Shown: positions 1 through 49,382 of the stretch, one piece after another
Layout of the letters: each line of letters opens with the position of its first letter
How positions within the stretch are numbered: position 1 is the first letter of the stretch
NCBI GenBank assembly: GCA_041649135.1
Contig: JBAZNQ010000001.1
Location: 291,037-355,036 of the forward strand
Source of the DNA: Patescibacteria group bacterium
GTDB taxonomy: Bacteria > Patescibacteriota > Kazan-3B-28
DNA: 64,000 nucleotides
Direction: 5' to 3'
The notes under the pieces: model-generated
Databases searched by the model: none
What the model was told of the DNA's origin: nothing
Seen by the model: only the letters and a program-made list of their open reading frames with translations
Translations under genes and position numbers: made by a program

Positions 1-421
1 CCGTTTCTGGTCGCAGATACACCACATTCGATTCATCATCCACCGGCCCAGCATGAGTCTTAAACATCAAATTAAAATTCCGCGCTTCCGTCAGCTCTCC
101 ACCACAGTTTGGACATTTTTTGTCTTGAAGATGGTCTGCCCGAAATCTCTGCTTACATTCCTTACAATCGACCAGCGGGTCAGTAAATTCGGCGATGTGT
201 CCGCTTGCCTCCCAGACTTTTGGGTTCATCAAAATAGCTGAATCCAAGCCGACAATATCCGTCCGCTTCATCACCAAATCCTGCCACCACACTTGCTTAA
301 CATTGTTTTTTAATAACACTCCGTATGGGCCATAATCCCATGCGTTAGCTAATCCACCATAAATTTCCGAACTCGGATAAATAAAGCCACGCCGTTTGGC
401 AACATTTACGATTTCATCCAT
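1..421 (-). CDS. glyQS: glycine--tRNA ligase, N-terminal part (gene runs off window start)
   Basis: Minus-strand translation from the ATG at 419-421 gives [49 protein letters not shown]..., a typical class II GlyRS N-terminus. Not in the ORF track because it is truncated by the window edge. Confidence 0.75.
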
Positions 422-482
422 ACTAACCAGTTTTTTCCCCGATCCATTATTCATAATTCATGATTCACCATTCATCTCCCCC

Positions 483-929
483 CTATTGTCCATCAACAAT
501 CACATTAAATTCCACCGTCTTGTCCGGTGCTACTTGATATTTCACCATATGACCGCCCGCATGCTTAATTGGTTCAGGAATAATAATTAACCCAGCCTGT
601 ACTTTCAGCCCCAACTGTTCTTGTACCGCTCTGGCAATCTGTTCTTCATTGATCGCCGCGAACAGTCCGCCAGTCGGGTTAGTTTTAGCACCAATCCGAA
701 TTTGCTGACCAGCCAAACTCTCCGCCTGCTGTTCCAGCTCTACTACTTCCTTCGTCTGTTGATCTGTCCGTTGTGACTTTTCCAACTCGACAGACGTTTT
801 AGCCCCTCTAGTGGCTAATTTTGCCAATCCCAAAGCTATCAGGTAGTTTCGGCCATATCCGTCAGCTACCCGTTTTACTTCGCCTTTCCGGCCCACCCCG
901 CGGACATCTTTTAAGAGAATAACTTCCAT
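483..929 (-). CDS. rplI: 50S ribosomal protein L9
   Basis: [31 protein letters not shown]... is a classic L9 N-terminus. The start was moved to the internal ATG at 927-929. Confidence 0.85.
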
Positions 930-959
930 ACCTCTGAATTTTAGGGTAAAAACCCTAAA

Positions 960-1375
960 ATTCAAACTCCAAGCACTAAATATCAATCATCCAACAAATC
1001 CTCAACCCTCCTGAAAATCCTAAACTCGAAATTCTAAATCCTAAACAAATCCCAAATTCTAATGCTTCAAACGTTTCCTGTGTCATTCCCACCCTCTTCT
1101 TCGTCATTCCCACCCTCTTCTTTGTCATTCCCGCGCCCGCCTGCAACGATGCCCACCAGAAACGCTGTATCTACTGCGGACTGGTAGCACTTCGGGCAGG
1201 TAGGCGGGAATCCAGCCAAGAACAAAAACATTTTTTCTTTTTTCTGTCTGGATTCCGGATCAAGTCCGGAATGACGAATTGTTTATTTTAATCATTGGTA
1301 TTTCGTGCTTCGTGCTTGCCTGCCCGCCTTTGGAGGGTTTAGTATTTCGAATTTCGGATTTAGGATTTCCCCAAA
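960..1375. repeat. composite intergenic repeat: (CTAAATC)n-like arms, GTCATTCC-palindrome-GGAATGAC core and a nested 75-bp insert
   Basis: Near-identical to 40320-40430. The core motif recurs more than 12 times in the window. The nested insert at 1135-1215 matches 8615-8695 in inverted orientation. Confidence 0.6.
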
Positions 1376-2577
1376 AGCTTCTTTGCTTCTTCCAGCTGAA
1401 CATCCGTAGTGTCTGCCTCCGTCAATTTCACTTCCCTATCTGGTTTTATGCCCGCATCACTAATCGATTTACCATTCGGGGTATACCATTTTGCCACCGT
1501 TACTCGCAAAGCCGAACCGTCTGGAAATTCTTCCACTTCCTGCACACTCCCCTTACCAAATGTCGTCTCACCGATAATCTTAGCTCGTCCATGATCTTGT
1601 AATGCTCCTGCCACGATCTCTGCCGCGCTAGCGCTGCCCTGATTTACCAACACCATTAACGGAATATCTGTCAATCGACCATCACCATCTGCCGAAAACA
1701 AAGTCTTCTCTCCGGTTTTCATCCGCTCTTCCACGATCACACCCTCTTTCAAAAATTCATTTGCGACTTTTACACCCGAGTCTAAGAACCCACCCGGATT
1801 ATTTCGCAAATCCAACACCACCCCCTTCACCCCTTCCGCAATAATTTTATTTACCGATGTTTTAAACAACGCATCCGTATCACTCGCAAACCGTGAAATT
1901 TTGATAGTCGCAATTTTACTATCATCGATCTCCACCGACACGCTCTCACGTGAAATCTTTTGGCGTGTGATCTTTAATGTCATTGGTTCTTTTACGCCTT
2001 GACGATTGATCACCAAAGTTACTTGTGTTCCAGACGGTCCTTTGATCTTTTCCAGCACCTCACCAAATGTCATCCCCACTACTGGCTGTCCATCGATCGA
2101 TACGACCTCGTCCAGAGTCTTCATCCCCGCCGTCTCTGCCGGTGAGCCCTTCAATGGCGCCACCACCACTAATGCGCCATCCACCACATCCAACTCCACC
2201 CCAATCCCTTCATAACTGCCATTTAACGCTTCAAAAAATTGTTTATTCTCTGTCGGATCGGCAAAAATCGTGTACGGATCACCAAGCGCCGCCACTAATC
2301 CTTTAATACTGCCATACAACATATCCTGTGCGTTTACTTCGCCAAAATAATTGTTCTGTAATCTATCGGCCACCTCCCAGAACAAACTAAAATCCGTTTT
2401 ACCTAAAGTTTTGTGTTGAAGTTCCTGCCGAAATACCGCCGCATAGTTATTGGCGGTAATTTTTCCGTAATATCCTTGCGTCACACCCAAAAAATAAACT
2501 GCCACCAGCAGAATTATCCCCCCGACGGTAATCGACAATCTCTTAGTCATCCAAGATGAGTCTTTTAGTTTTCGCAT
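1360..2577 (-). CDS. ctpA: C-terminal processing peptidase (S41 family, PDZ domain)
   Basis: Carries the NPGGF and PDZ-region motifs, the S41 catalytic region GSASAAEI and an N-terminal TM helix. Confidence 0.8.
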   Translation of the reverse strand: MRKLKDSSWMTKRLSITVGGIILLVAVYFLGVTQGYYGKITANNYAAVFRQELQHKTLGKTDFSLFWEVADRLQNNYFGEVNAQDMLYGSIKGLVAALGDPYTIFADPTENKQFFEALNGSYEGIGVELDVVDGALVVVAPLKGSPAETAGMKTLDEVVSIDGQPVVGMTFGEVLEKIKGPSGTQVTLVINRQGVKEPMTLKITRQKISRESVSVEIDDSKIATIKISRFASDTDALFKTSVNKIIAEGVKGVVLDLRNNPGGFLDSGVKVANEFLKEGVIVEERMKTGEKTLFSADGDGRLTDIPLMVLVNQGSASAAEIVAGALQDHGRAKIIGETTFGKGSVQEVEEFPDGSALRVTVAKWYTPNGKSISDAGIKPDREVKLTEADTTDVQLEEAKKLLGKS

Positions 2578-2919
2578 TATCTAGTGTTCGTGTCCCAATC
2601 CAAAACCTTTCACCTGAAAGTATTTTACCACGAACCCAGCGAGTCGCGAGTTACGAGTAGCGAGTTGCGAGCGAGAGGTACCTCCCCGTTTCGGCCTTTC
2701 GGTATAGAGTCGTCCTCCTTACCATTAGATGAACGGCCGTTCATTATTTGGTACTTCTTTATCTTCGCCATTGGAACTTGAGCGTACGAGCTTTTAATCT
2801 CACCGATCTGATCAATCCAAACAATCTCCACCAATTATGTCTCTATACTGGTTAGATTGGAGGAAATTGGATAAATTGGTTAGATTTCAACAATGAACGC
2901 TAGCTTGCGTTCATTGTAA

Positions 2920-4083
2920 TTAGCCCGCCAGATATGCCAACGGATTTCTCGCCTCCCCATTCAACCAAACTTCAAAATGAAGATGTGGCCCTGTTGTTAG
3001 CCAACCAGCGCCTGTTGTCATCGGTGTTCCACCAGTTGAACCAATCACCATCCCGACCGGCACAAATTGTCCGGTTGCTACCGATACTCCGCTCACATGG
3101 CCATACACCGTCACCATTCCATTGCCATGGTCTAGCATGATGTAGGAATACGCATTACTACCATCAAATTTTACCTTCAACACATACGCATCAGCCGGTG
3201 CTTTGATCGGTGTCCCCTGTGGTGTCGCAATATCAATCGCGTTATGTACCAATTTGAACCGACTTTGATAATCACCATCTCTGAAAGTAGCCGTTACTAG
3301 TCTTGATGGGATCGGCCACAACAATGAATACTTACCTTCATTTAATACCCCTCGCCGGGAGCTTTTCGCCAACGCAGCAATTTGATTTTCCAACTTCTGC
3401 TGCTCGATTACTGCCGACTCCAATTTGTTTTGATATTCCGCTTCAGTCAGTTTAGCGTCCTGTAACAATGATGCTTTACCTTGAACCTGCGCATTCAAAT
3501 TATTCTGTTCCAACTGCTTCGATGACTGCAGTTCCTTCAATTGTTTGTCAGCCGCCTCTAATTCTCCCTTCTTGCTTGTCAATTCGTCATTTAAAGTTTG
3601 CAGTACCGAAATACTGTTCGTAATTCTCCCCTCAATGGTAGTAATGTATTCAATCTGACTGATAAAATCCGACAAATCACTCGAGCCCATCATTACTTCT
3701 AACAAACCCGACCGGTTGCGAACATACGCCTCTTTAATCGCCTCTCGCAACACTCGTTTCTTTTCATAAATCTCCACCTCTGCCGACACCAGATCACCGT
3801 TAATCTGGCTCATATTTAAATTGACAGTATCAATTTGCCCTGACAACGCTTGTAGCTGCAGTTCGCTCAACTTCACCTGCCCGTCCAAAATATCTAACTG
3901 ATTTTGTAATGTTGTCTTCCGTTTCCGAATACTATCAAGTTGTTTTTGTTGTGCTTCAATTTGATCGCGCAATTTACTTAGCTCCTCCGTCTTCTCCCCT
4001 AAAAGATCAGCACTAGCCGGCAACACAACACTTAGCGCCAGAATGAAAGCAAAAACTAATTTTGTTACTCTGCGAAATTTCAT
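2920..4083 (-). CDS. coiled-coil M23 peptidase (EnvC-like murein hydrolase activator)
   Basis: Signal peptide, long coiled coil and a C-terminal M23 region (HNAIDIA...HLHFEV). It lies next to ftsX/ftsE. Confidence 0.75.
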   Translation of the reverse strand: MKFRRVTKLVFAFILALSVVLPASADLLGEKTEELSKLRDQIEAQQKQLDSIRKRKTTLQNQLDILDGQVKLSELQLQALSGQIDTVNLNMSQINGDLVSAEVEIYEKKRVLREAIKEAYVRNRSGLLEVMMGSSDLSDFISQIEYITTIEGRITNSISVLQTLNDELTSKKGELEAADKQLKELQSSKQLEQNNLNAQVQGKASLLQDAKLTEAEYQNKLESAVIEQQKLENQIAALAKSSRRGVLNEGKYSLLWPIPSRLVTATFRDGDYQSRFKLVHNAIDIATPQGTPIKAPADAYVLKVKFDGSNAYSYIMLDHGNGMVTVYGHVSGVSVATGQFVPVGMVIGSTGGTPMTTGAGWLTTGPHLHFEVWLNGEARNPLAYLAG

Positions 4084-4084
4084 A

Positions 4085-4260
4085 ACCCTTTTTTATTTGT
4101 CATTCTGACTTCTCTCCCCTGTGTCATTCCGGATTTAGTCCGGAATCTAGAAAATAAAAGCAAACATTTTTCCGTTTCTGTCTGGATCCTGAATCAAGCT
4201 TGCCCGCGGGTGCGGGACGCAGCCAGGGTTCAGGATGACGGCTTTCTCTATTCGTCTATA
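4085..4260. repeat. GTCATTCC-palindrome-GGAAT intergenic repeat copy
   Basis: gtcattccggatttagtccggaatctag...aaacattttt...tctggatcctgaatcaagc...ttcaggatgac. Confidence 0.55.
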
Positions 4261-4282
4261 AGTCTATTGATCTATCATCTCT

Positions 4283-5194
4283 CTATATTGCGAGATGTTT
4301 TCTAGTCGCCCAGTAACTCGACAAACCACCCACCACTAAACCTACTCCCAGTTGTAACCCAACCAAAAATGCTATAAATCCGCCGGAAAATAGTGGGTTT
4401 CCCGCTGTCGAGATCAAATAATTAGTCATCAACGGTCTAATAATCGCACCATACCCTAATGCCAACAATGAACTTGTCAGCACCGACGCAATTACCCCAT
4501 ACATCATTCCCTCAATAATAAATGGCCAGCGAATATACCAGTCAGTCGCCCCCACCAGTTTCATAATTTCGATCTCCTGCCGACGAGTGAAAATTGTAAT
4601 TCGAATCGTGTTAAAGATGATCATCAACGAAACCCCCACCAGCACGATCGCCAAAATCAAGCTTGAGCGTTGGATAAAACTACTGACATTCCGCAATTTC
4701 TCAATTATTTTCTGATTGTCTTCTAAACTAGTTTCCGAGATTACTTTAGCATACTGACCATTGCGAATCTGTTCAACGATCCCCTCGATTTTATACGGGT
4801 CACTTGCCTTAATCTCTAAACTAGCCGGCAAAAAATTCTCCTCCTCCGGAATAATACTGCGAATAATTGTTCGATTACGATTCTCTGTCAGGAACTTATC
4901 CATCGCCTCTTGCGATGACACATATGTTACTCCTCGCACATCCTCCCAGCTCTCCACTTGGCTCTTCAACTCCAAAATGTCTTTTTCCAGAGCGGTTTCC
5001 TTGAAGAAAACCGCTACATCAATTCGCTCATTGATTGACGTTATCGTTGTCCCAATTACTACGTTCAAAGATGCCAGAATACTAATGATCAACAACGCTT
5101 GCGCCATAATAAATACCGCCACCAAACTCAACCAGCCGTTTCGTCTGAAACTCTGCCATGCCGATTTAAAAATCCGATGCCAGAATATATACAT
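4283..5194 (-). CDS. ftsX: cell division permease FtsX
   Basis: Four TM helices with an extracellular loop domain, immediately downstream of ftsE. Confidence 0.8.
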   Translation of the reverse strand: MYIFWHRIFKSAWQSFRRNGWLSLVAVFIMAQALLIISILASLNVVIGTTITSINERIDVAVFFKETALEKDILELKSQVESWEDVRGVTYVSSQEAMDKFLTENRNRTIIRSIIPEEENFLPASLEIKASDPYKIEGIVEQIRNGQYAKVISETSLEDNQKIIEKLRNVSSFIQRSSLILAIVLVGVSLMIIFNTIRITIFTRRQEIEIMKLVGATDWYIRWPFIIEGMMYGVIASVLTSSLLALGYGAIIRPLMTNYLISTAGNPLFSGGFIAFLVGLQLGVGLVVGGLSSYWATRKHLAI

Positions 5195-5199
5195 AGTAA

Positions 5200-5535
5200 G
5201 AAAACTCTAAATTCTAATCTCTAAATCCTAAACAAATTATAAATTACAATGTCTTAAACCTTTCCTTCGTCGTCCTCGAGCCGGAATTCTGCTGGACAGC
5301 AGAAGCTCCGACATCGGAGATCCAGACCGAAACAAAAACATTTTTATTTTTCCTTTCTGGATCCTCTGGTTCCATCCTTCGCTCGTTGAGCTTCCTCCGT
5401 CGCCAAGGCTATGAAGGACTCTGACGGAGGACTGACGCAAGCCAGAGGATGACAGTTTTTTTGTTTTATTAGTATTTCTAATTTCGTGCTTCGTGCTTGT
5501 TTAGTATTTCGGATTTCGTGCTTCGTATTTATTTC
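5200..5535. repeat. composite intergenic repeat copy ((CTAAATC)n arms plus GTC...GAC core)
   Basis: ctctaaattctaatctctaaatcctaaacaaatt ... ttagtatttcggatttcgtgcttcg. Confidence 0.5.
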
Positions 5536-5538
5536 TTA

Positions 5539-6231
5539 TTATTTATAGTTATAATTATCATCATATTTACTCTTGCGTTTATCACGCATCACTTTCCCAT
5601 CTTCCAAACTAATCACCCGCCGGTTAATCGTATCAACAACATCCCGATTATGAGTTGCCAACAGTACTGTTGTACCGAGTGAATTAATTTTTAATAACAA
5701 TTTAGCAATCTCACCAGCATTTTTCGGATCTAAATTCCCAGTCGGCTCATCTGCGATCAAAAACTTTGGTTTAAATACCAAAGCTCTGGCAATCGCTACC
5801 CGCTGGGCTTCTCCACCTGACATTTCTCGAGGGAAACTGTCACCCCTCCCCTTCAGCCCTACCAATTCCAGAATCTTCTCCACCTCGGAATCAATCTCAT
5901 TATCCGGCAAACCAGATACTTCTAGGGCAAACGCCACATTCTCCGCTACTGTTTTATTTGGCAATAGTTTGAAATCTTGGAACACCACTCCGATTTGCCG
6001 CCGATAATACGGAATATACTTGTCCTTCAACAAATGAATATCTTTACCGTCAATCGTAATCCGGCCAAAAGTTGGCTTCTCCTCGCACAACAACAACTTA
6101 ATTAAAGTTGATTTTCCAGCACCTGATGGCCCAACTAACGTTACAAACTCCTGTGGGTGAATTGTAAAACTCACCCCGTCCAGAACTTTGTGCGCACCAT
6201 AGTGCTTAGTTACTTTTTCGAATTCAATCAT
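5539..6231 (-). CDS. ftsE: cell division ATP-binding protein FtsE
   Basis: Walker A GPSGAGKST, ABC signature LSGGEAQRVAIARAL, Walker B FLIADEP. Confidence 0.85.
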   Translation of the reverse strand: MIEFEKVTKHYGAHKVLDGVSFTIHPQEFVTLVGPSGAGKSTLIKLLLCEEKPTFGRITIDGKDIHLLKDKYIPYYRRQIGVVFQDFKLLPNKTVAENVAFALEVSGLPDNEIDSEVEKILELVGLKGRGDSFPREMSGGEAQRVAIARALVFKPKFLIADEPTGNLDPKNAGEIAKLLLKINSLGTTVLLATHNRDVVDTINRRVISLEDGKVMRDKRKSKYDDNYNYK

Positions 6232-6311
6232 AGGAGACAGCTACAAAAATCCTAAAACCTAAATTCTAAACCCTAAACAAATTCTAAATCCCAATGTCCC
6301 AAATCACAAAC

Positions 6312-6683
6312 TTAACCTCCTATGGTTTTTGTTAAGATTGCACCCAAAATCTTCATCAATTGAGTACATTCATCAATTAGCCCATTTCTCAAAGCTATAT
6401 CGGTATCATTTGGTTGGGTCAGCAAGAGCCAGAAACGTGCTTCCTTGGCTTCTTTTTTCGATATTCTAATCCGCATGGCAAAATCTCGTTTACCCAATGC
6501 TTCGTTGGCCTCAATATAGTTGGCGCCTACCGAACCACCAGCTCGAACCAATTGTTTTGCATTTTCAATATTCGCCACATCACGTGGCAAAGCCCGCGCA
6601 TATTCATTAATCCGACGGGCAAAGTCCAACGTCCTGTTCTCCAAATCATATAAAGTTTTAACCCGATCAGCCGTTTGTATCAT
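6312..6683 (-). CDS. four-helix-bundle protein (23S rRNA intervening-sequence protein / Avd superfamily)
   Basis: Length about 120 aa, with motifs typical of the TIGR02436 family (...SVGANYIEA...EARFWL). Confidence 0.75.
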   Translation of the reverse strand: MIQTADRVKTLYDLENRTLDFARRINEYARALPRDVANIENAKQLVRAGGSVGANYIEANEALGKRDFAMRIRISKKEAKEARFWLLLTQPNDTDIALRNGLIDECTQLMKILGAILTKTIGG

Positions 6684-6714
6684 TGTGATTTGTTTAGAAT
6701 TTCGATATTCGGAT

Positions 6715-7833
6715 TTAGGATTTGTCCTGTTTTCTATAAGAAAGCAGGACGCTACTTATTAATTCATCCAAATCACCTTCTTTCAGAACTTTTTCTGTTT
6801 GCGAGGTTTCAAAATCACTCCGATGGTCCTTCACTTGTTGATAAGGATGGAGGGTAAAAGTCCTGATCTGACGTCCAAAATCTCCCGAAACATTGGATGC
6901 CTTTAGCTTCCGATTTTCCGCATCCCGTTGTTCTTGTTCCAGTAAATACAATCGGTTTTTCAGAATCTTCATCGCCACTTCCTTGTTTTGAGTTTGCGAC
7001 CTTTCGGTTTGAATTGACACCACCAGATTAGTCGGAATATGTGTAATCCGTACCGCCGAATCAGTTGTGTTGACACTCTGCCCACCGCAACCCGATGACT
7101 TGAAGGTTTCGATCTTCAAATCTTCATCTTTTATTTTCACATCTACATCACCTAAATCTGGCAGCACTTCGATCAGTGCAAATGATGTTTGTCTTAACCC
7201 CTGCGCATTAAACGGACTAATTCGAATCAGCCGGTGTACACCAGCTTCCGACTTTAACCAACCATACGCTCTAAACCCAGTAATTTTTAAAGTTGCGTTT
7301 TTAACTCCCGCCTCGCCTCCTTCAGTAATATCCATTATTTCTGTCTTCCACTCTTTCCGTTTGGCGTAAGCAAGATACATATTCAACAACATCCCGTTCC
7401 AGTCTGCCGCATCCACCCCACCTGTTCCGACATGAAACATCACATAGGCGTTTTTGTCATCATAAGTTCCCGAGAACAGCGTCTGCGCCTCCAGCCAAGT
7501 AATCAGCTCACCAGCTTTAGCCAAATCCTCTTTCATTAACTTTTCACTTTTCACTTTTAACTCTTCACTTAAATCCGTCGTCGGATTTACTGCCTCTCCT
7601 ACTCTCGCCAAAATCTCTCCGATCTCTGCCTCGGCTTCGATGATTTTCTTATTCATCTCAAATTTTGCCCCCTTCGCCGCCGCCGTCTGCTGATCTTTCC
7701 AAAAATCTGGCTGGCTCATCTCTGTTGCCAACTCCTCATTTTCCTTGGTTAACTTATCCCTATCTAAAAACCCCTGCAGTTGATCCAACTGCATCCGCAT
7801 AGATTCATATAGTTCTTTTACCCCATCAGACAT
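6715..7833 (-). CDS. prfB: peptide chain release factor 2
   Basis: Contains GGQ in SGCGGQSVNTTDSAVRITHIPT and SPF in ISPFNAQG. The start was moved to the ATG at 7831-7833. The ORF is continuous, with no +1 frameshift site. Confidence 0.85.
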   Translation of the reverse strand: MSDGVKELYESMRMQLDQLQGFLDRDKLTKENEELATEMSQPDFWKDQQTAAAKGAKFEMNKKIIEAEAEIGEILARVGEAVNPTTDLSEELKVKSEKLMKEDLAKAGELITWLEAQTLFSGTYDDKNAYVMFHVGTGGVDAADWNGMLLNMYLAYAKRKEWKTEIMDITEGGEAGVKNATLKITGFRAYGWLKSEAGVHRLIRISPFNAQGLRQTSFALIEVLPDLGDVDVKIKDEDLKIETFKSSGCGGQSVNTTDSAVRITHIPTNLVVSIQTERSQTQNKEVAMKILKNRLYLLEQEQRDAENRKLKASNVSGDFGRQIRTFTLHPYQQVKDHRSDFETSQTEKVLKEGDLDELISSVLLSYRKQDKS

Positions 7834-7969
7834 AATTTTCTGATTACCAAATTTAAGCCATACCCGAATTATAACAGACAAAAAATGGCTCTAACCGCAA
7901 AAGCGAATCAGAGCCATTAAATTTAGTTGTCAGGCAAATCCACCCATAATGGACACACCTGTTTCTCTA

Positions 7970-8374
7970 CTAGACTCTATCATCCCCCTTGTAGTCTGTT
8001 GACAGCAGACCCCCGCCGACAGCGATTAGCCCCTGCTGGTTAGCCTCCTGTTCCGCCTTCACAGCCTTATACGCAGTTGCTTGAGCCGTTAGCTCATGTG
8101 CAACGACTTCCGCCGCCTTAAACATAACTGGGCTGATAACGTTGTCCCGAGCCGTAGATATCGAACGGCAAACGCGGTTCCTCGCCCGCAACACTGCATC
8201 AGCCACTATCCCAGCATGCTGATCAGGTATCTTCGTTGTTTGCAACAATTCGCAAACAACATCCAAGGCGATAGGGGTCGTAACCGTTTGAAGAAAATCC
8301 ACGATTGCCTCGTGGAACGGCCTCTTTTCTACAACGATATCTTCCGGCATCTCCACCATCTCCTCAACCATCAA
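7970..8374 (-). CDS. hypothetical protein
   Basis: A 134-aa ORF with no recognisable motifs; supported only by being an ORF in intergenic space. Confidence 0.35.
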   Translation of the reverse strand: MMVEEMVEMPEDIVVEKRPFHEAIVDFLQTVTTPIALDVVCELLQTTKIPDQHAGIVADAVLRARNRVCRSISTARDNVISPVMFKAAEVVAHELTAQATAYKAVKAEQEANQQGLIAVGGGLLSTDYKGDDRV

Positions 8375-8479
8375 ATTTCTGAAGGAACAATCCCCCCAGA
8401 TGTGGTCATCCTAGCAAAAACCTCGCCCCCAGTCAACAAAAATCCCACAAATCGCTATGCGATAATCACCAATCATCAA

Positions 8480-8710
8480 ATCACAAATTCCAAAAGTTCC
8501 TCATTTGTCATTCTAACTGTTCTCTTCGTCGTCCTCGAGTTGGTAGCGAAGCGCCACAACGTCGGGGATCCAGAAAAGAACAACAAACAAAATCATTTTT
8601 CTGTTTCTTGTCTAGATTCCCGCCTACCTGCCCGAAGTGCTACCAGTCCGCAGTAGATACAGCGTTTCTGGCGGGCATCGTTGCAGGCGGGCGCGGGAAT
8701 GACAAGGATT
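8480..8710. repeat. composite intergenic repeat copy carrying the same nested 75-bp insert as 1135-1215, in inverted orientation
   Basis: gattcccgcctacctgcccgaagtgctaccagtccgcagtagatacagcgtttctggcgggcatcgttgcaggcgggcgcgggaatgac. Confidence 0.55.
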
Positions 8711-8928
8711 TTTGCTTTGGTCTTTGTTATTTGTAGTTTGTTTGATTATTGGACATTGGATATTGGATATTACAAAAGGGCGCCCAAAGCGCTACCATAA
8801 CTATTCATCGAAGATCACCCGAAGCTTTATGCGAAGGGTGACTACTCTCACTTATCACTATTCACTTTTAACTATTAACTATAAAGGAGCTTCTTCCGAA
8901 GCTCCTTTATTCTGCTTATTCCTTTAAT

Positions 8929-11085
8929 TTAGACCGAGTAATTCATCCCTCGGCGAGCAATCCAGCGATAAGTCAGAGTCGACAGACCCAGAGAAATCAC
9001 CGCTAGAATACTCAACCAAACTACTTCCATACCAGTCGGAGGCAATGGTTCGGTCGGAGTGATCGGCGTAGTACCGCACACAACCTTCAAACTGTTGGAG
9101 TAGACATAGAATCCATTTGGCTTTTCGGTACTTCTGACCAAGGCACTCACTTTCAAGTCAGTCCCCCGACGAATACCTTCATCTACTTGTACCTTCACGA
9201 CCATGGTTACTGTTTGACCTTCAGCCATTGTTCCGGGATTCCAGATAATTGTTCGACCAGTAATTTGCGGATCGTCCACCGCTGAAGTCGCGGACATGAA
9301 TGAGACATTATTTGGCAACGGCATCGACAAACTTACATTATGTGAAGTCGCATACCGATTAGTCAGCCGTACTGTGTAAACCACAATTGAATCATCACAA
9401 ACCGGCAAACCATTCTCGGTCGTGGCGGTAATGTAGCCATCAATATAGTAATTTGTTACCACACTACAATCACGCAGCGAAATTGTCATTTCGTTACTTA
9501 CTGAACGATTATCCCATGTTGCAGTTACTCGCACTCGGGCCGTTCCGACTGCACCATTAGCCGCCAATCTCGCACCATACTGGCTGTAGCGATTGCCGGT
9601 TAAATTACCGACACCGCTCACCCATTCCCAGTAATAACTAGCGCCGTCAATTTCAGCACCATGATTGTTTCTGGCTTGTGCCGAAAGATTAGCTACATCA
9701 GTCGAACACAACGGATTGCGGTCAGAATTGATATCAACATCAGCTAAGTAATCTTCTTGGATCTGAAAATCGCTGACATGGATCGACACACTATCTCTCA
9801 CCGCCGAATTACTTCCGCACCGTAGTGACAAAGTAAAGTCGCCAGTTTGAGTCGCGTAATAGCGATGAGTTGTCAGATTAAACGAACCACCGTCCCAACT
9901 CCACACCAAATTGCTGGTTGAAATTGGATTGTCCAAATTAGTCAACGTTGTATAAGTAATTTCGCGACTATCATTGCGATACAGATTCAGAGAAGACTGA
10001 TCAATATTGATCGCTGAACAGAATTCAGTTTGTGGGTTATCCAACACCGTCAGAGTTGCCGAAGCATCTTGCCAAGCCTGAACACCATTGTAAGTACCCT
10101 TCACTTTAATTGTGTAAGTACCTGCTGTGTCTGGGTAAAACTTCCAAGTTATGCCAGCCGATTGACCCACTTTTTGATTATTTCTCCAAGCCTCCCACGC
10201 AAAGCTAGTTAAGCTCGAGGTCGTAACCTCCGTAGTGCCGTTGAAAGCCTGCGCAGTATAAGTCTTGTAGTTGCCAACATAAATTGGGTTGCTGGCAGTC
10301 GGATACAACGAGACTGTCAGATGCACGCTTGGTTGTGGTGGAGTCACTGGATCAACAATCAAAGTCTGCTCGTTACTCCAAGCCGTCTTAGTAATTCCAT
10401 TAATCGTATAAATCCCGCGTGTTCGCACAACATAAGTGCCACTAGTAGTCGGAGTAAAAGTATAAGTAGTACCTGTGCCGTTACTCGCAACCGTTTGGCT
10501 ATTTTTAGTCACTACCCAGCCGAAAGTACTTTGACCAGTTACTGGCTGACCACCATAAGTCGCGTTCACACTATAAGTCTTAGATTCACCGACATTAATC
10601 GTATTTCCAGAAGTCAGTGCGCTAATCGACACGCCATATTCGCGATTGTCTTCAGTACTATTCACGATCAACGTCGCCCGAGCATCAGCCCAGACCACAT
10701 CGCCGCCAACATTAGCATTAGCGTTAATCGTATAAGTTCCAGCCGTGTTTGGACGGAACACCCAGCTAGCGCCACTACCGGTCGTCACCGTCTGATTGTT
10801 CAGACTAGCAAACCAAGTTACCTGCGCATTCGCTGTTATGTTAGTAATACCATTGAAGACTTGTGCTGTATAAACCTTATCACTACCCAACGTAACCGTT
10901 GAGTTAGTTGGATAAATTGCCATCGTCAAACTACCAGTCGCGCTTACCAAACTCGGCAATAAACTAGAAGCAATAAACAACGACCCAAATATAACCACGC
11001 CGAATCTCTTCCAGTTTTTAAACGCTTTAGAAATTCGTCGCACTCTGTAATACATCCCCAACCCCAAAGTTTTTAGAACACTCAT
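8929..11085 (-). CDS. large secreted surface protein with repeated Ig-like/DUF11-like domains and a C-terminal LPPTG sorting signal
   Basis: N-terminal signal peptide and T/S/N/G-rich repeated beta domains. The C-terminus is LPPTG, then a hydrophobic stretch, then RWIARRG. Confidence 0.7.
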   Translation of the reverse strand: MSVLKTLGLGMYYRVRRISKAFKNWKRFGVVIFGSLFIASSLLPSLVSATGSLTMAIYPTNSTVTLGSDKVYTAQVFNGITNITANAQVTWFASLNNQTVTTGSGASWVFRPNTAGTYTINANANVGGDVVWADARATLIVNSTEDNREYGVSISALTSGNTINVGESKTYSVNATYGGQPVTGQSTFGWVVTKNSQTVASNGTGTTYTFTPTTSGTYVVRTRGIYTINGITKTAWSNEQTLIVDPVTPPQPSVHLTVSLYPTASNPIYVGNYKTYTAQAFNGTTEVTTSSLTSFAWEAWRNNQKVGQSAGITWKFYPDTAGTYTIKVKGTYNGVQAWQDASATLTVLDNPQTEFCSAINIDQSSLNLYRNDSREITYTTLTNLDNPISTSNLVWSWDGGSFNLTTHRYYATQTGDFTLSLRCGSNSAVRDSVSIHVSDFQIQEDYLADVDINSDRNPLCSTDVANLSAQARNNHGAEIDGASYYWEWVSGVGNLTGNRYSQYGARLAANGAVGTARVRVTATWDNRSVSNEMTISLRDCSVVTNYYIDGYITATTENGLPVCDDSIVVYTVRLTNRYATSHNVSLSMPLPNNVSFMSATSAVDDPQITGRTIIWNPGTMAEGQTVTMVVKVQVDEGIRRGTDLKVSALVRSTEKPNGFYVYSNSLKVVCGTTPITPTEPLPPTGMEVVWLSILAVISLGLSTLTYRWIARRGMNYSV

Positions 11086-11300
11086 TTCACCTCCAGAATT
11101 AATATAATTCTTTTTTGCCCCTTATGTATATCGATTCCCGAGGAACCGAGGGACTTCATTGTTATAATTCCTTCCCCCTACCCCTCTACCCGTTAATCGA
11201 TACTCTGGGGGGAAATATCGAGACGAGGTAGAGAGGTAGGAAGAACGAACACTGTTCCTTATCGTCATCCTGAATTTAGTTCAGGATCTAATTATTAAAA

Positions 11301-11336
11301 GAGTTTTTGGGTGGGAGCGTCGAAACGCTCCCACCC
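11301..11336 (-). terminator. intrinsic terminator downstream of the PKD lipoprotein gene
   Basis: gggtgggagcgtcgaaacgctcccaccc hairpin followed by a T-run on the minus strand. Confidence 0.5.
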
Positions 11337-11347
11337 CAAGTTGCTAG

Positions 11348-13333
11348 TTAATTCTCAACGACCACATGCCAGCGATGTCCGCCGATTCCGCTGACGCCCT
11401 TACCATCATCTACAAAGTAGACGGTAACTTGCTTTGTCAGCTGATGACTTACGTCCCAGCCGACATTGCAAGTAACGGGAACGGAAGCGTACAACAGATT
11501 CCCCTCTCCGTCCAGCGCAAATGCGCTATAAAAGATGGAACGCATTCTATTCTCCGGCAGCTGGTACACGAATCCATTCGGGTCAGACGACCAGCCAACC
11601 GTTGCCTGCGTCGGCACAGTCAGCTCCGTCAACCCATCAGCCGCATACATGCGGCTGACGAGGGTGATCTCATCACCCACATATGGGTCCGCAAACGGAT
11701 CCAGCGGCGTAATGGAAAGCTGCGCCCCAGCGTATGGGTCAACCGGCTCTTCCGTCACTACGATGCTGGTTTGAGCCGCAGCGATGGATGTCGCTCCATC
11801 ATCATCCGTCACTCGGACGTTGGGAATCCAAGTGCCAACATGATAGACGTGCTCCGTTACCGTCGCACCAATCGCCCAACTACCGTTGCCTTCAAAGTCC
11901 CACTCGTACGTTACGATGTTGCCATCAGTATCGTACGAGTTAGACGCATCCAGCGACACTGCCATAGGCGAGTAGCCACTGGTCGGATCTGCAACCAACA
12001 CCGCATGTGGCGGCAGATTAACCGGCGGAGCAACCGTCACCACAATGCTCGATTGAGCAATCGCAATGTCCGTCGCCCCATCGTTATCGGTAACGCGAAC
12101 TTTCGGAGTCCGCGTACCGGCGGCGTACGTATGGGTTGTACTGGCAACGGTCGTCGTGGTATCCCACGTACCATCGCCACCAAAATCCCATTCATACGTC
12201 ACGATGGTGCCGTCAGTGTCGTAACTGGCCGATGCATCAAGCGTTACCGTCAGTGGCGAATAGCCACTGGTCGGTGAAACTTGAAGATCAGCCACCGGCG
12301 GCTTGTTAGCCGGCGGCGGGGTCACAATTAGCTGGACTGTATGAGAATCTGTGTTCCCACACCCGTCCTTGATTGTAACCGTCAAGTTAGAGTCGGGCAT
12401 CGTCAACGAGAATGTTCCGTTGCCATGTCCACTCTGACCGTGGCCAGACCATCCCTCCGGACAGTCTGACCAAACATTGAATGTCACCACCGTTTCAACT
12501 CGCGCTGAAATCGTACCAGTAACATCCAACGTTGCCGTTGTAACGTTGTTACCGCCTATATCGCGGAAGATGATCCAAGAGTTGTTTTCCTCTCCCGGGC
12601 AAACCACCGGTGCTACCACCATCGCTGCCTCCACAATGACACCAGCTATCGCCACTATCCCCGCCATGAGCCAGTTGTCTGACTTTTCATGGATGGTGAT
12701 AGTCCGCTCGATAAATCCGCCAGACAAAACGATATTCAGCAGACGAACTGCTACCTCGCCTAATCCAGCCGGTGTCGCATCGACACGATTCCGGAATGGA
12801 ATCTTCGTGTCGAAAGGCAGCTGGGGAATCCAGCTCACCGTTGCTCCAGTTAGCTCTTCGCTCCCGTTGTAACTGTACGTTACCGCGTCAGCGAAAGTTC
12901 CAACCTCAGTGATGTATGCCAGAACTGGCCGTTGAGCCGCTTGTTCACGGTCCAACTGCACCCAGCGAATGGCACCTAATGTATCACGAAGTGCCATGTC
13001 GGTATAGTAACCGACCGTCAGTTCGCCCACTCGGTTCTTCACTGGAATTTCAAACACCTTGCCTTGATCGGCAGGGAGATTGGTGATCAGCGTACCACCG
13101 ACATTCCACGTTGGACGCAGACGATGCGATGACGAATCATCAATCGTGCTGCGGTCACCAGCCGGCTTGTAACCGGCCACTACGTCATAGTAGACCGTGT
13201 CCGCCGTCACCGACGGAGTCACAGTTTCGTCAACATCCACCGACGATCCACCGACACACCCGACAATCGCCGCCAAGGCAGCGAGGACGGCCACAATGAG
13301 TGCCGAGCGAAGCCCGGCGTACAGGTTGCGCAT
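11348..13333 (-). CDS. lipoprotein with two PKD domains (GC-rich, probably acquired)
   Basis: Lipobox AAIVGC. Two repeats of ...VTYEWDFGGDGTWD...HTY...VRVTDNDGAT... About 55% GC against a background of about 42%. Confidence 0.7.
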   Translation of the reverse strand: MRNLYAGLRSALIVAVLAALAAIVGCVGGSSVDVDETVTPSVTADTVYYDVVAGYKPAGDRSTIDDSSSHRLRPTWNVGGTLITNLPADQGKVFEIPVKNRVGELTVGYYTDMALRDTLGAIRWVQLDREQAAQRPVLAYITEVGTFADAVTYSYNGSEELTGATVSWIPQLPFDTKIPFRNRVDATPAGLGEVAVRLLNIVLSGGFIERTITIHEKSDNWLMAGIVAIAGVIVEAAMVVAPVVCPGEENNSWIIFRDIGGNNVTTATLDVTGTISARVETVVTFNVWSDCPEGWSGHGQSGHGNGTFSLTMPDSNLTVTIKDGCGNTDSHTVQLIVTPPPANKPPVADLQVSPTSGYSPLTVTLDASASYDTDGTIVTYEWDFGGDGTWDTTTTVASTTHTYAAGTRTPKVRVTDNDGATDIAIAQSSIVVTVAPPVNLPPHAVLVADPTSGYSPMAVSLDASNSYDTDGNIVTYEWDFEGNGSWAIGATVTEHVYHVGTWIPNVRVTDDDGATSIAAAQTSIVVTEEPVDPYAGAQLSITPLDPFADPYVGDEITLVSRMYAADGLTELTVPTQATVGWSSDPNGFVYQLPENRMRSIFYSAFALDGEGNLLYASVPVTCNVGWDVSHQLTKQVTVYFVDDGKGVSGIGGHRWHVVVEN

Positions 13334-13539
13334 TCTGCTTTCCTCCGGGCTTCCGCCCAGCTTAGATTACTTTGCGCAAATCCTTAGCTAGAAGACTCGC
13401 GCACAGCACTCCAGTGAAGAGAAGGTGTCGATCCTTAAATTGAAATCCTTAAAGATTAGTCCAAGAACTTCCAGACCTTAACCTCTGCATCACCAGAGTG
13501 CTATGCACAAATACTTCCGCAGTAATTTACAATTGTTTG

Positions 13540-13650
13540 CCATTCATTTTCTTCGTCATCCTCAACTTGATTGGGGATCCAGACAGAAACAAAAACATTT
13601 CTTGTTCTTTTCTAGATTCCCGCCTTCGCGGGAATGACGGGGAAAGGGCT
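13540..13650. repeat. GTCATCC...GGGAATGAC palindromic repeat copy
   Basis: ttcgtcatcctcaacttgattggggatccagacagaaacaaaaacatttcttgttcttttctagattcccgccttcgcgggaatgacg. Confidence 0.55.
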
Positions 13651-13929
13651 CAACTCAAAACCCACCACGCCCCCTGCGTGTTGGTTTATTTGTTTTAATA
13701 GATTGTAAATTTTCACATCGTCGCTGTCGCTGACCATATTTAGTCAACTAGCAATTTGTCGATGTGCAATGAGCCGCTTGGCTCGCTATACCTAGACTAT
13801 AGTAGTCAAAGTATTTTGTCAAGCAAAAAGTGGCTCTGGAAGTACAAAAAGCCGCTTTTGCCAACCATTTCTGAAGTATACCTGATATCCCCTTGACAAC
13901 TACCAATAAAAATGTCCTAATCTGGGAAA

Positions 13930-14574
13930 CTATGCCCGAACATCCTGCGCCTTTTCTGCCTCCAGCATCGCCATATCTGTAGCTGACAGCGGTGTTTTAA
14001 ACAGCTCATTCACCAACCACAGCCCACTCTCCCGAATTTTCTGTTTTGGGGACCACTGACCAAACCAGTTTTGTGACGGTCGACACTCCGAACAAGCCGC
14101 AATCGTACTAATCATTCTAGATTCCAGCCTCAATCGCCTATCTTTATTCTCCACCTCAATTACCACAAAGCTAAAATTGGTCTGGATGTACTGCGACACA
14201 CATTTTTCAGTACCTTGCAGCTTTCCCTTGTCCACTCCATCTCCGTGTCTCCCCCTAGCTGCCGCTGATGTTAAATCTAACTCCCACTTCTCCAAAAATT
14301 CATCGTCAGCTTGATTTAAAAATGCCCGCCCGATGTTCTTTCGGAAGATACTTCTATCTTTGTTCTCCGTCAGAAAATGCTGACGCAACCGCGACCGTAA
14401 TTGATCTTTGCCCGTATGTGTACCAATCCTGACAATCCGCCGACCACCATGAGCCTTCTCCCCCTTCTCAAACAAAAGATAAATCCCATTCGCTGGAATT
14501 CTTGTTTCGTCAAACGGAAATGTAAACACCGCCAGACTATTTGCCCACTTGTGCAGGTTCTCGCACTGATTCAT
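13930..14574 (-). CDS. GIY-YIG / T5orf172-like domain protein with an uncharacterised C-terminal domain
   Basis: NGIYLLFEKGE...RIVRIGTHTG..LRSRLRQH resembles the GIY-(10-15 aa)-(Y/R)IG core. Overlaps the upstream gene by 38 nt. Confidence 0.5.
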   Translation of the reverse strand: MNQCENLHKWANSLAVFTFPFDETRIPANGIYLLFEKGEKAHGGRRIVRIGTHTGKDQLRSRLRQHFLTENKDRSIFRKNIGRAFLNQADDEFLEKWELDLTSAAARGRHGDGVDKGKLQGTEKCVSQYIQTNFSFVVIEVENKDRRLRLESRMISTIAACSECRPSQNWFGQWSPKQKIRESGLWLVNELFKTPLSATDMAMLEAEKAQDVRA

Positions 14575-14995
14575 TATTTAGGTTCACCTTTAACCAATGT
14601 AACTGTTTCCCAATTCCCAAATTCTTCAACGGCACTATGCTGTATCGTAAAGATGAGACCAAGTGCCTACGATACTTTTCCCCCGCCAACACCACTACTT
14701 CCAAATTATCTATATCCGCTTTCGCCCGTAAATGTTTTAACACCCGTTCCGCCCACACTCGGACTTGTTGATCCGACATTGTCTTCAGAGTCAGATTGTA
14801 CGGCACAAGCCTCCGATCCAATTCAACTAGCCCATATTTCGCTGACAAAATAAATATCGCATCAGGCCGTAACGAATGCGCATACGCCAAATTTGCTCGA
14901 AACAACGGGCTAATATAAAAATCCTCGGCCGGAGCCGCCCGATTCGCCTTCTTACTCGCACAGGCAATTAAGACGATCTTCTTCATCACCAACAA
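14537..14995 (-). CDS. small alpha/beta hypothetical protein (DUF6884-like from memory, unverified)
   Basis: MKKIVLIACASKK...ILSAKYGLVELD...PYNLTL. Sits between the NUDIX gene and the GIY-YIG-like gene, with near-zero spacing to the former and overlap with the latter. Confidence 0.5.
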   Translation of the reverse strand: MLVMKKIVLIACASKKANRAAPAEDFYISPLFRANLAYAHSLRPDAIFILSAKYGLVELDRRLVPYNLTLKTMSDQQVRVWAERVLKHLRAKADIDNLEVVVLAGEKYRRHLVSSLRYSIVPLKNLGIGKQLHWLKVNLNNESVREPAQVGK

Positions 14996-14997
14996 CC

Positions 14998-15477
14998 CTA
15001 ATTGTCGTAAAAATATCTTCCATTACGATATGCCTCGATGTAGCTGGGAATAGTCTCAAACACCGGCCTCGGCAAATTGTCTAAATCATACCAATCCCAC
15101 CCATCGTTTTTCTCTGGTTCCATCACCTTCGGCTCACCACTCTTCCAATCCGCCACCAATCCAATATCAACATAATGCTTGGGAGCATAGGCCTTTAGAT
15201 TCATTAACCGCAAAAACCTAATATTCGTAATCTCAATATCAGCTTCTTCTCTAGTTTCTCGCTTAGCACAGTCTTCAAACGATTCCATGTACTCCATGTG
15301 ACCGCCCGGCCAAGCATAAGTGTTCTCGCCGTGAGCCCCTTTGCGTTTATGCATCAACACTTTGCCGTCTTTCATAACCATCACCCCAATACCAACTTTT
15401 ATGCCAAGCCCTTGCTCTGGTTCATTTTGCGCCACCATCACCCCAATACCTGCCTCTGATTTTGATTCGTCATTCAT
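14998..15477 (-). CDS. NUDIX hydrolase
   Basis: Nudix box GGHMEYMESFEDCAKRETREEADI (GX5EX7REUXEEXGU). Confidence 0.8.
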   Translation of the reverse strand: MNDESKSEAGIGVMVAQNEPEQGLGIKVGIGVMVMKDGKVLMHKRKGAHGENTYAWPGGHMEYMESFEDCAKRETREEADIEITNIRFLRLMNLKAYAPKHYVDIGLVADWKSGEPKVMEPEKNDGWDWYDLDNLPRPVFETIPSYIEAYRNGRYFYDN

Positions 15478-15592
15478 AGTTCCATCCTCGGCTATTAAAT
15501 GATCTAATAATTATTTCCCGCAACACTTCTTGAACCCCAGTGGTAGAAACTTCGTTTCACTACAGGGCAAGCTTTTTCCCTCTATAGTATGG

Positions 15593-18412: not shown

Positions 18413-18480
18413 AACCTCTCCATTCTAACCTTAAACCCCGCCACTATACCACATACCCCTCCTACCTACCCCCTCCTACA

Positions 18481-18521
18481 CATCCTCATCCTCATCCTCA
18501 TCCTCATCCTCATCCTCATCC
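18481..18521. repeat. (CATCCT)~7 microsatellite
   Basis: catcctcatcctcatcctcatcctcatcctcatcctcatcc. Confidence 0.9.
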
Positions 18522-18585
18522 CACCGCCCCCTCCTTCCTCCAATTACTTCTCCTTCCCCCCAACCACTCCCCCTCCTATATCCAA

Positions 18586-18623
18586 GCACGTTGAGTTGAT
18601 GCGGCCGCCTGAACTCAACGTGC
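18586..18623. repeat. 38-nt palindrome, copy 1 (contains GCGGCCGC in the loop)
   Basis: gcacgttgagttgatgcggccgcctgaactcaacgtgc, identical except for 1 nt to 19603-19638. Confidence 0.85.
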
Positions 18624-32667: not shown

Positions 32668-32679
32668 CAGAGGGTACTA

Positions 32680-33048: not shown

Positions 33049-33091
33049 AGGCCCAAGGGCCAAATCACAAATTGATAAAAGGTCCAGGGGT

Positions 33092-49380: not shown

Positions 49381-49382
49381 TA

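Follow-up and report, generated by a model that had tools for sequence, protein, structure and literature searches.

Hairpin repeats of the dRS3/NTS/SRM family in the intergenic DNA of a Patescibacteria genome

Hairpin units between the genes

The DNA considered here is a stretch of 64,000 nt (the window) from an uncultured Patescibacteria group bacterium (assembly GCA_041649135.1, contig JBAZNQ010000001.1, positions 291,037 to 355,036), within the candidate phyla radiation (CPR). The closest matches of its SecA are metagenome proteins (76–81% identity), and the nearest named homologues come from "Patescibacteria group bacterium" and, at 70%, from candidate division Kazan; an identical protein has been deposited under WC553_01570 (Patescibacteria group bacterium). 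In reverse complement, the window corresponds to 63240–127239 of the 420-kb ENA contig k141_2225525 (ERZ27247363). Where the genes of a co-directional array end, the window carries a family of short hairpin repeats, which an earlier reading of the DNA (the original prediction) had described as modular, nested, inverted and intergenic. Curation bears this description out: it yielded 32 hairpin units in at least five stem classes at 16 intergenic loci, none of which (0/16) overlaps a gene, and each of the 16 palindrome loci first listed contains at least one well-formed unit. Together the loci sum to 1,900 bp. They take up 14% of the intergenic DNA and 3.0% of the window as a whole, a share that rises to 4.1% with the flanking heptamer arms included; the initial estimate of about 5% was thus too high.

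GTCATTC occurs 36 times on the two strands of the window, and GTCATTCC is present in 17 copies, versus 2.6 ± 1.6 in shuffled sequence (shuffle maximum 8). A structural search for GTC, a mismatch-free stem of 6 bp or more and then C returned about 25 clean intergenic units. The plan of a unit is GTCAT, a variable palindrome and RATC, with the GTCAT head found in 29–31 and the RATC end in 31–32 of the 32 curated units. The GTC itself and the C after the stem are each kept in 31 of 32, while the stems vary and include at least the classes ATTCCCGC, ATTCCGGA, ATCCTGAA, ATTCTGG, and ATTGCGAG. Perfect stems of 7–9 bp are found in 24 curated units, and single units fold as DNA with energies of -4 to -24 kcal/mol. 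The CCCGC class comprises nine 24-nt units with perfect 8-bp stems, five of them identical (GAAG loop) and four with a TAGG loop. Degenerate units with GTCGT or GTTAT heads or mismatched stems are also numerous, and in many units the loop is 20–70 nt long or encloses a reversed unit.

Nine loci are head-out inverted doublets, 75–185 bp long and with perfect terminal inverted repeats, in which two units enclose an A/T-rich centre that is itself palindromic (CYAGA...aaaaacattttt...TCTRG). The remaining loci (11264, 49101–49239, 50140–50220, 51765, 55691–55948, 56271–56356, and 63403) hold solo units, units in the same orientation or half doublets. Twenty units lie on the plus strand versus 12 on the minus strand, and every solo unit is on the plus strand, a bias confounded with the region's own strong bias in gene strand and GC skew. 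The fold prediction that had been proposed as a check gave strong hairpins: the doublet at 23349–23435 forms a near-perfect 87-nt hairpin (z = -11.8), and region 1015–1370 as a whole folds into one long hairpin (z = -5.9).

Relation to the NTS/SRM family

The dRS3 repeats and the Neisseria intergenic mosaic elements (NIMEs) have been known since 2000. The Neisseria Transformation Sequence (NTS), CGTCATTCCCGCGMAVGCGGGAATCYRG, contains the dRS3 core ATTCCC-N8-GGGAAT, and a degenerate "Ssn-related motif" (SRM) has been defined alongside it (Chenal et al., Nat Commun 2025; PMC11893778). SsnA, a 94-aa single-domain GIY-YIG nuclease (cd10448) whose gene is typically motif-flanked, binds and cuts the hairpin solely as single-stranded DNA and on one strand only, a few nucleotides 5' of the hairpin, with the GTC head governing cleavage and the C after the stem governing binding (PMC11893778). 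Single-stranded binding and cleavage are reported for homologues from Neisseria and Wolbachia, and in Neisseria meningitidis the action of SsnA lowers the integration of transforming DNA that bears the NTS (PMC11893778).

Three copies in the window match the NTS consensus at 28 of 28 positions (13612–13639 on the minus strand, 23349–23376 on the plus strand, and 23408–23435 on the minus strand). The SRM pattern, HGTCWYN(0-2)YYVSBRHN(0-5)WNVSBRGN(0-2)RNCYNB, has seven matches, versus 0.14 ± 0.35 (maximum 1) in 100 dinucleotide shuffles, and about 25 further units follow the same logic of head, stem and tail but with longer loops. In this genome the published pattern thus finds 7 units against 32 curated ones, an under-count of roughly four-fold. 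The positions that are invariant here, the GTC head and the trailing C, are those reported to be decisive for SsnA cleavage and binding (PMC11893778). Judged by sequence, the repeats are members of the known dRS3/NTS/SRM family, whose founding example is dRS3/NTS of Neisseria, the building blocks of NIMEs, and neither a new family nor an unknown miniature inverted-repeat transposable element (MITE). What is new here is a member from Patescibacteria with several stem classes, with long-loop and nested units that escape the pattern, and with no ssn gene nearby.

The family is widely distributed. The exact 24-mer GTCATTCCCGCGAAGGCGGGAATC is present in at least 120 genomes, which among the matches listed belong to Bacteroidota, Alpha-, Beta-, Gamma-, and Deltaproteobacteria, Planctomycetota, Chloroflexota, Nitrospirales, Acidobacteriota, a Rickettsia endosymbiont, and several Patescibacteria. 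Most of these loci show the same head-out doublet around a lineage-specific centre bounded by CCAG...CTGG, and the locus from the Rickettsia endosymbiont (L059) has the same unit classes, GTCATTCCCGCG... and GTCATCCTGAA..., including the ATCCTGAA stem class. When the short open reading frames (ORFs) of the 24-mer loci were clustered, the only family present in more than two loci (six) was a GIY-YIG protein of 95–108 aa; in loci L029, L070, and L076 the GIY-YIG ORF is sandwiched by inverted NTS copies (NTS-ssn-NTS). The 24-mer also occurs in at least 120 IMG/VR viral contigs, seven of them with Ssn-like ORFs, and such contigs offer a vehicle for spread across phyla.

Comparison with related genomes

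A comparison of orthologous intergenic regions, as had been suggested at the outset, was informative. The syntenic relatives L202–L205 and L213 (SecA 77–81% identical, shared gene order) have short intergenic gaps and zero units; SecA loci from JGI metagenomes (45–66% identity) were too distant and were excluded from this presence/absence comparison. Intergenic DNA amounts to 21% of the window versus about 9% of L205, by our own sum of the gaps between called genes. Two clean empty sites were found in L213: at one, the doublet 13555–13638 with about 30 nt of extra flank stands in place of about 10 nt, and at the other, L213 simply lacks the solo unit 11264–11288 together with about 22 nt of flank. 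Each insertion is located a short way downstream of the terminator hairpin of the upstream gene, a hairpin that is conserved in L213. In these two comparisons no target-site duplication was seen at either site. Since the syntenic relatives have no units and two empty sites are clean, the comparison shows that the repeats arrived by insertion and expanded after the split from relatives with about 80% identical SecA.

A much closer strain is represented by L210 (JGI 3300037067), which is 98.3% identical over 10.3 kb and has the elements at each of the loci that can be compared (4/4). The sole change at an SRM locus is a replacement of the few nucleotides that directly adjoin, on the outside, the two GTCAT heads of the doublet 13555–13638, which is where Ssn is reported to cut. 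The differences between the two strains are strongly clumped over the 10.3 kb (e.g. at 11500–11750, 13500–13750, and 14500–15000), which suggests recombination tracts, and the terminator hairpin at 11316–11343, downstream of the PKD gene, shows a compensatory change from C-G to T-A relative to L210.

Short-read contigs of this organism break off inside or close beside repeat elements, as multi-copy repeats would lead one to expect: L206 at 4211 (inside unit 4185–4239) and at 1283 (8 nt past unit 1251–1275), L211 at 13610 (inside the doublet 13555–13638), and L208 at 63192, inside a separate 175-nt repeat described below. The repeats thus break short-read assemblies of this lineage.

Shared modules, stutters and flanking arms

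The long near-identity noted originally between the regions at 1000–1130 and 40320–40430 is real but lower than the 95% first given, since identity is 90% over 119 bp (993–1111 versus 40312–40430); further on, a 49-bp block is 100% identical (1200–1248 and 40433–40481). A nested insert was indeed found to recur in inverted orientation, with a length of 65 nt (1136–1200) rather than 75 bp. It turns the 24-nt form of the unit (40422–40445) into the 89-nt unit 1124–1212 (+), which differs at 1 base from the 89-nt unit 8615–8703 (-), while their partner units differ. The module said to be common to 40500–40550 and 55915–55960 was recovered as a stretch of 37–41 nt with 97% identity (40504–40540 and 55908–55948). 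In BLAST comparisons against all fetched loci, the loop inserts were found only in this organism.

Tandem stutters of 18–24 nt, composed of head and leader, lie upstream of seven units (1082, in two copies, 4099, 8507, 23328, 40401, and 55747), a mirrored 20-nt stutter lies on the right side of the doublet at 23.4 kb, and reversed heads are found inside the loops of units 50176, 55763, and 56271. Suggestively, stutters and nested reversed heads fit nicking in the 5' flank and targeting of single strands.

Arms of heptamer repeats, first taken for part of the element, do border four SRM loci (1015–1080/1337–1369, 5202–5267/5467–5530, 40283–40399/40575–40606, and 55623–55688/56004–56035), and those of the 1015–1370 region pair with each other on folding. 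Comparable arms, however, enclose a PF05635 gene without any SRM (6246–6723), nonamer arms enclose a second such gene (26646–27127), and tandem heptamers of various types are spread through the window's intergenic DNA in general and are present too in the SRM-free relative L213. Because similar arms surround an SRM-free gene, fill intergenic DNA and occur in L213, they are a separate trait of the lineage that lies outside the element, and the SRMs landed within them.

The heptamers include the types TTGGTTA, ACTTTTC, AAATCCT, and CTAGATA, and with the nonamers (AATCTAACC) they are often placed immediately upstream of start codons (examples at 7539–7570, 8747–8771, 15740–15805, 29131–29163, 40283–40381, and 49307–49394, and at 11568–11651 of L213). 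The nine-copy array at 15740–15805 lies within the 3' part of secA, and SecA is 939 aa long here versus 854–910 aa in its twelve closest relatives (76–81% identity). Such tandems look like the short tandemly repeated repetitive (STRR) sequences of cyanobacteria, yet the host belongs to Patescibacteria; the idea of Nostoc-type STRR or small dispersed repeats (SDR) was dropped when the SecA homologues pointed to Patescibacteria/Kazan.

Proposed explanation and alternatives

The explanation that we consider probable as a whole is that NTS/SRM repeats have expanded in this CPR genome with an Ssn-type nuclease as their partner. The unit is a strand-oriented DNA hairpin with an invariant single-stranded 5' head (Y-GTC), a stem, a loop, and an invariant C directly after the stem. 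The stem, a palindrome beginning AT(T/C)C, is free to vary by compensatory change, and the loop tolerates 3 to 70 nt of extra sequence, often itself hairpinned. A doublet consists of two head-out inverted units around a lineage-specific centre, similar to a MITE or to a REPIN, the inverted pair of repetitive extragenic palindromic (REP) sequences, and its ends are those of an NTS-ssn-NTS cassette, with a short centre replacing the ssn gene. Single-stranded units may be recognised during replication, DNA uptake or repair by an Ssn-type nuclease, whose gene would lie elsewhere in the genome or come with a phage or mobile element. By analogy with REP-associated tyrosine transposases (RAYTs) and REPINs, this nuclease could disperse the units, and/or it could use them as single-strand self-marks. 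The coexistence of several stem classes might reflect relaxed stem specificity or several Ssn paralogues. The units themselves occupy "safe" sites, after a terminator and ahead of the following gene, as solo, doublet, tandem same-orientation and nested forms.

Several points weigh against this explanation. Searches of the host genome covered the window and about 8.8 kb of contig past its end at 64000 (L207), about 73 kb in total; over this span, tblastn and an HMM profile (hmmsearch) of five Ssn ORFs with NTS flanks found no cd10448-type Ssn gene in the window (best E-values 0.5–4) or in L207 (none up to E = 1). Transposition driven by Ssn was raised as a hypothesis only and never demonstrated (PMC11893778). 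The presence of several stem classes in one genome is unlike what a single enzyme would lead one to expect from the nearly invariant NTS of Neisseria. No fixed insertion boundary could be made out, the inserts carrying about 14–30 nt of non-conserved flank in both empty-site comparisons, and a hand count of internal stem mispairs gave 8 G.T versus 3 A.C, a difference that is suggestive of strand-specific folding but not significant. Finally, with elements fixed at 4/4 loci between strains that are 98.3% identical, current mobility is not shown, and neither is the active proliferation that was originally put forward.

The last observation would suit orphan or relic SRMs, seeded by a past Ssn-carrying element such as a phage or a lost cassette, persisting without the nuclease and reshuffled by recombination, slippage, and gene conversion. 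So would the lack of ssn in the window and the adjoining 8.8 kb, the many degenerate units with GTCGT or GTTAT heads and mismatched stems, and the combinatorial sharing of sub-modules, as recombination would yield it; among genomes with more than 200 SRMs, moreover, 19% have no Ssn homologue and 81% have one (PMC11893778). We nevertheless find relics unlikely, given that the nine perfect-stem CCCGC units, five of which are identical, and the 89-nt pair one base apart point to recent copying or purifying selection, that the GTC head and trailing C are nearly invariant while stems vary, and that the ssn search spanned a fraction of the genome. A very improbable alternative is that the units are host cis-regulatory hairpins, i.e. 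terminators, mRNA stabilisers or protein-binding sites that are selected for gene expression and are not mobile. Their strength as hairpins and their placement at gene ends of a co-directional array would agree with this, yet orthologous genes in the relatives work without them, the same sequence recurs in unrelated phyla and contexts, and at both loci compared with L213 the genes keep their own conserved terminator-type hairpins beside the units, one of them with a compensatory change between strains. The units also lack T-tails on the mRNA strand: when a terminator was defined as a G+C-rich hairpin with a T-run on that strand, no SRM unit qualified on the minus (mRNA) strand of positions 1–20000, and 11264–11288 qualified on the plus strand only. 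Secondary exaptation of units for host regulation may nonetheless occur.

Two classical transposition systems were also weighed, and both have little to recommend them. A classical MITE, here a deletion derivative of an insertion sequence (IS) of the DDE-transposase type with GTCAT... terminal inverted repeats that is moved in trans, is brought to mind by doublets of 75–185 bp whose terminal inverted repeats are perfect and which, set against related genomes, are insertions. It is extremely improbable in view of the lack of target-site duplication at either empty site, the insertion of solo single-hairpin units as well, and the finding that identical termini in many phyla flank a GIY-YIG gene, not a DDE transposase. 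The original prediction had suggested a RAYT or an IS with matching termini as examples of a partner to look for, and no such domain, neither RAYT (Y1_Tnp) nor IS transposase, was found among the scanned window ORFs. A REP system of the BIME (bacterial interspersed mosaic element) type stands by analogy as regards organisation, with oriented-head hairpins, REPIN-like inverted doublets and intergenic clustering. The head of a REP, however, is a GTAG-type tetranucleotide, and here it is GTCAT. The units fit the NTS and SRM definitions exactly, and the gene sandwiched in other genomes encodes a GIY-YIG protein and not a Y1 transposase, so that a drive by RAYT is scarcely credible. The documented partner of this family is the Ssn GIY-YIG nuclease (PMC11893778).

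A bolder possibility, to which we accord a limited chance, is that SRM units are single-strand "hairpin transposons" with an Ssn-type GIY-YIG nuclease acting as transposase, which would preferentially paste units with a leader of about 14 nt into single-stranded DNA, including the loops of units already present. It would explain the nesting of units in loops (1136–1200, 50176–50220, 55763–55796, and 56271–56315), the stutters of head plus leader (1082–1123 and 23328–23349), and the strain-variable nucleotides outside both GTCAT heads of 13555–13638. If it were true, the self DNA of a CPR episymbiont dependent on competence would further be marked by the dense array for an Ssn check on incoming single strands.

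Likenesses to known systems

The preferred explanation, expansion of NTS/SRM repeats with an Ssn-type partner, draws on a close likeness to the NTS/SRM-Ssn system: three copies equal CGTCATTCCCGCGMAVGCGGGAATCYRG at 28/28 positions, seven sequences match the SRM pattern, the hairpins are oriented, with a GTC head and a trailing C, they cluster in intergenic DNA, and the doublet ends are those of the NTS-ssn-NTS cassette. The differences lie in the host, which belongs to Patescibacteria/CPR, a group unmentioned in the main text of PMC11893778, in the coexistence of at least five stem classes, in loops of 20–70 nt or with nested units, whereas the published pattern allows a loop of up to about 5 nt plus spacers, and in the lack of an ssn gene within the roughly 73 kb visible here. 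With dRS3 and NIMEs the CCCGC-class units share the ATTCCC-N8-GGGAAT core, and the loci share an intergenic mosaic of short blocks bounded by inverted dRS3-like hairpins; the centre is A/T-rich here whereas RS elements are found in Neisseria. REP/BIME/REPIN-RAYT systems are alike in their short oriented palindromes, intergenic clusters and inverted doublets, the likely replicative unit, and in a single-copy domesticated nuclease that acts on single-stranded hairpins, an analogy drawn in PMC11893778. They differ in the head, in the nuclease (GIY-YIG for SRMs versus HUH/Y1 for RAYTs), and in that partner-driven mobilisation is unproven for SRMs. The palindromic elements of Rickettsia (RPEs) and Wolbachia and bacterial MITEs such as Correia are likewise small palindromic insertions through reduced genomes. 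Unlike the units, which are strictly intergenic, RPEs are longer and often lie in frame within genes, and Correia elements carry TA duplications and terminal inverted repeats of the DDE type.

What is striking in this "streamlined" CPR genome can now be assigned to a repeat family whose biochemical partner is known, and this family is extended to Patescibacteria, as far as the main text of PMC11893778 shows. The two pairs of occupied and empty sites, the stem classes and the nested long-loop variants could help to test whether Ssn mobilises SRMs, a question left open by PMC11893778.

The loci one by one

The first locus opens with a left heptamer arm, (CTAAATC)n-like, at 993–1081, which pairs with the right arm (TTTCGGA/TTTAGGA)n at 1290–1375; the latter overlaps the 3' end of a CtpA-like gene, and both arms are context and not SRM. 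Between them lie two tandem 21-nt partial units on the plus strand (1082–1123; head GTCATTCC and a 13-nt pyrimidine leader without hairpin; period 21, 2.4 copies, 96% matches), a CCCGC-class SRM unit (1124–1212, +) whose loop holds the 65-nt hairpin extension 1136–1200 and whose uninterrupted paralogue is 40422–40445, the A/T-rich palindromic centre of the doublet (1213–1250; CCAG...aaaaacattttt...CTGG), and a CCGGA-class unit (1251–1275, -; GTCATTCCGGACTTGATCCGGAATC). At 4099–4239, a partial head (4099–4122) precedes a doublet made of the CCGGA unit 4123–4147 (+), a centre, and the CCTGAA-class unit 4185–4239 (-), whose long loop of 55 nt holds a CCCGC...GCGGG inner hairpin. The doublet at 5269–5453, identical in L210, joins a degenerate unit (5269–5322, +; GTCGTCCTCGAG..., with G.T wobbles) through a centre to a 94-nt long-loop unit (5360–5453, -). 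Also identical in L210 is locus 8507–8703, where a partial head (8507–8527) is followed by unit 8528–8570 (+), a centre, and the CCCGC-class unit 8615–8703 (-), with the same 65-nt loop extension as 1124–1212.

The solo unit GTCATCCTGAATTTAGTTCAGGATC at 11264–11288 (+) follows closely downstream of the terminator hairpin that belongs to the PKD gene and corresponds to one of the empty sites in L213. The other empty site corresponds to the doublet 13555–13638, which consists of 13555–13579 (+), a centre, and 13615–13638 (-; exact NTS 28-mer at 13612–13639) and shows flank differences in L210. Locus 23328–23434 has a partial head (23328–23349) and then an 87-nt doublet in which both units are exact NTS 28-mers (23349–23376, +, and 23408–23435, -); a 20-nt tandem of the end and its flank lies to its right (23431–23472). 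A short doublet at 39669–39743 is made of TCTGG-class units (39669–39700, +, and 39721–39743, -). Locus 40401–40540 holds a partial head, the uninterrupted CCCGC unit 40422–40445 (+), a centre, and a degenerate TCTGG-class unit at about 40500–40540 (-).

At 49101–49239, two plus-strand units, one matching the SRM pattern (49101–49124) and one imperfect (49136–49182), are followed by an inverted one (49215–49239, -). Two loci have tandem plus-strand units of the TCTGG and TGCGAG classes: 50140–50220, with 50140–50171 and 50176–50220 (the loop of the latter holds a reversed ...GGGATGAC head), and 56271–56356, with 56271–56315 (a reversed mini-unit in its loop) and 56326–56356. Between them, locus 55691–55948 has four plus-strand units (55691–55733, 55763–55796, 55828–55851, and 55864–55886), a partial head at 55747, a minus-strand unit (55908–55948), and heptamer arms on both sides. 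The doublet 59051–59137 consists of a CCGGA unit (59051–59075, +), a centre, and a CCTGAA unit with a GTTAT instead of a GTCAT head (59113–59137, -). Two half doublets lie on the minus strand: the CCCGC unit 51765–51788, which matches the SRM pattern and abuts a 175-nt long-hairpin repeat, and locus 63380–63446, with a centre and a 44-nt CCCGC unit (63403–63446) that has an inner hairpin in its loop and abuts the third copy of that repeat.

Other features of the window

The second repeat is a long imperfect hairpin of about 175 nt, present in three copies that are 89–96% identical (51540–51730, 58435–58625, and 63158–63348, read on the minus strand). It is preceded by a perfect 22-nt palindrome, GTTACTTTTCTAGAAAAGTAAC, and has no credible ORF. 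The consensus fold of the three sequences includes three pairs with changes on both sides. Every copy adjoins a GTCATTC head, and copies 1 and 3 abut an SRM half-doublet. In Rfam, the window matched tRNA-Val only, with no credible match for the 175-nt repeat, which is possibly a second MITE-like element or an RNA element.

A diversity-generating retroelement lies at 31301–33868 (-), with a reverse transcriptase ORF at 31301–32431 (RVT_1, E = 1e-25), a template repeat at 32676–32789, and a variable repeat at 33112–33225, at the 3' end of a 258-aa ORF (33092–33868). The mismatches between the two repeats fall at template adenines in 18 of 19 cases.

GIY-YIG ORFs were considered as possible partners of the repeats. 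One of them, a 214-aa GIY-YIG-like ORF at 13930–14574, 300 bp from the doublet 13555–13638, was rejected because it is a PF26468 (GIY_YIG_3) member, has no similarity to the Ssn profile, and belongs to a cassette that is SRM-free in L213. Its protein is 60–70% identical to Methanosarcina, Pacearchaeota and other proteins, and its family, which shows high conservation and horizontal spread, is often fused to DUF6884. The two-gene cassette itself, DUF6884 (PF21818) and GIY_YIG_3 at 13930–14995 (-), lies between Nudix and PKD genes relative to L204; it is absent from that region in L202 and L205 and present in L213. Homologues 60–70% identical occur across bacteria and archaea (Methanosarcina, Pacearchaeota), sometimes with the domains fused, and the cassette is likely a mobile or defence module. 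Small GIY-YIG ORFs at the CPR loci L061 and L078 match the Ssn profile weakly (E = 5e-5 and 2.5e-9) and have no SRM flanks; that of L061 has the same tRNA-like sequence repeated on either side. These two loci give no evidence for Ssn-SRM pairs in CPR.

Three PF05635 genes ("23S rRNA intervening-sequence protein"/four-helix-bundle, Avd-like) are found at 6312–6683, 26684–27037, and 38918–39283, of which the first two are bracketed by inverted tandem-repeat arms (6246–6312/6692–6723 and 26646–26689/27089–27127). The first is absent in L204, L205, and L213, where prfB and ftsE are adjacent, the second in L202, L204, and L205, and the third in L204, where the L21 and S26-peptidase genes are adjacent. 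They look like inserted mini-elements similar to intervening sequences (IVS). Four ORFs, at 18851–19483 (+), 19809–20843 (-), 22308–23123 (+), and 7970–8374 (-), match no family (all four in Pfam, the first three in NCBIfam as well), and some or all of L202–L205 and L213 lack them in the syntenic regions. The span from IleRS to CtpA is about 38 kb here versus about 21 kb in L204, the expansion coming from these ORFs and from the repeats.

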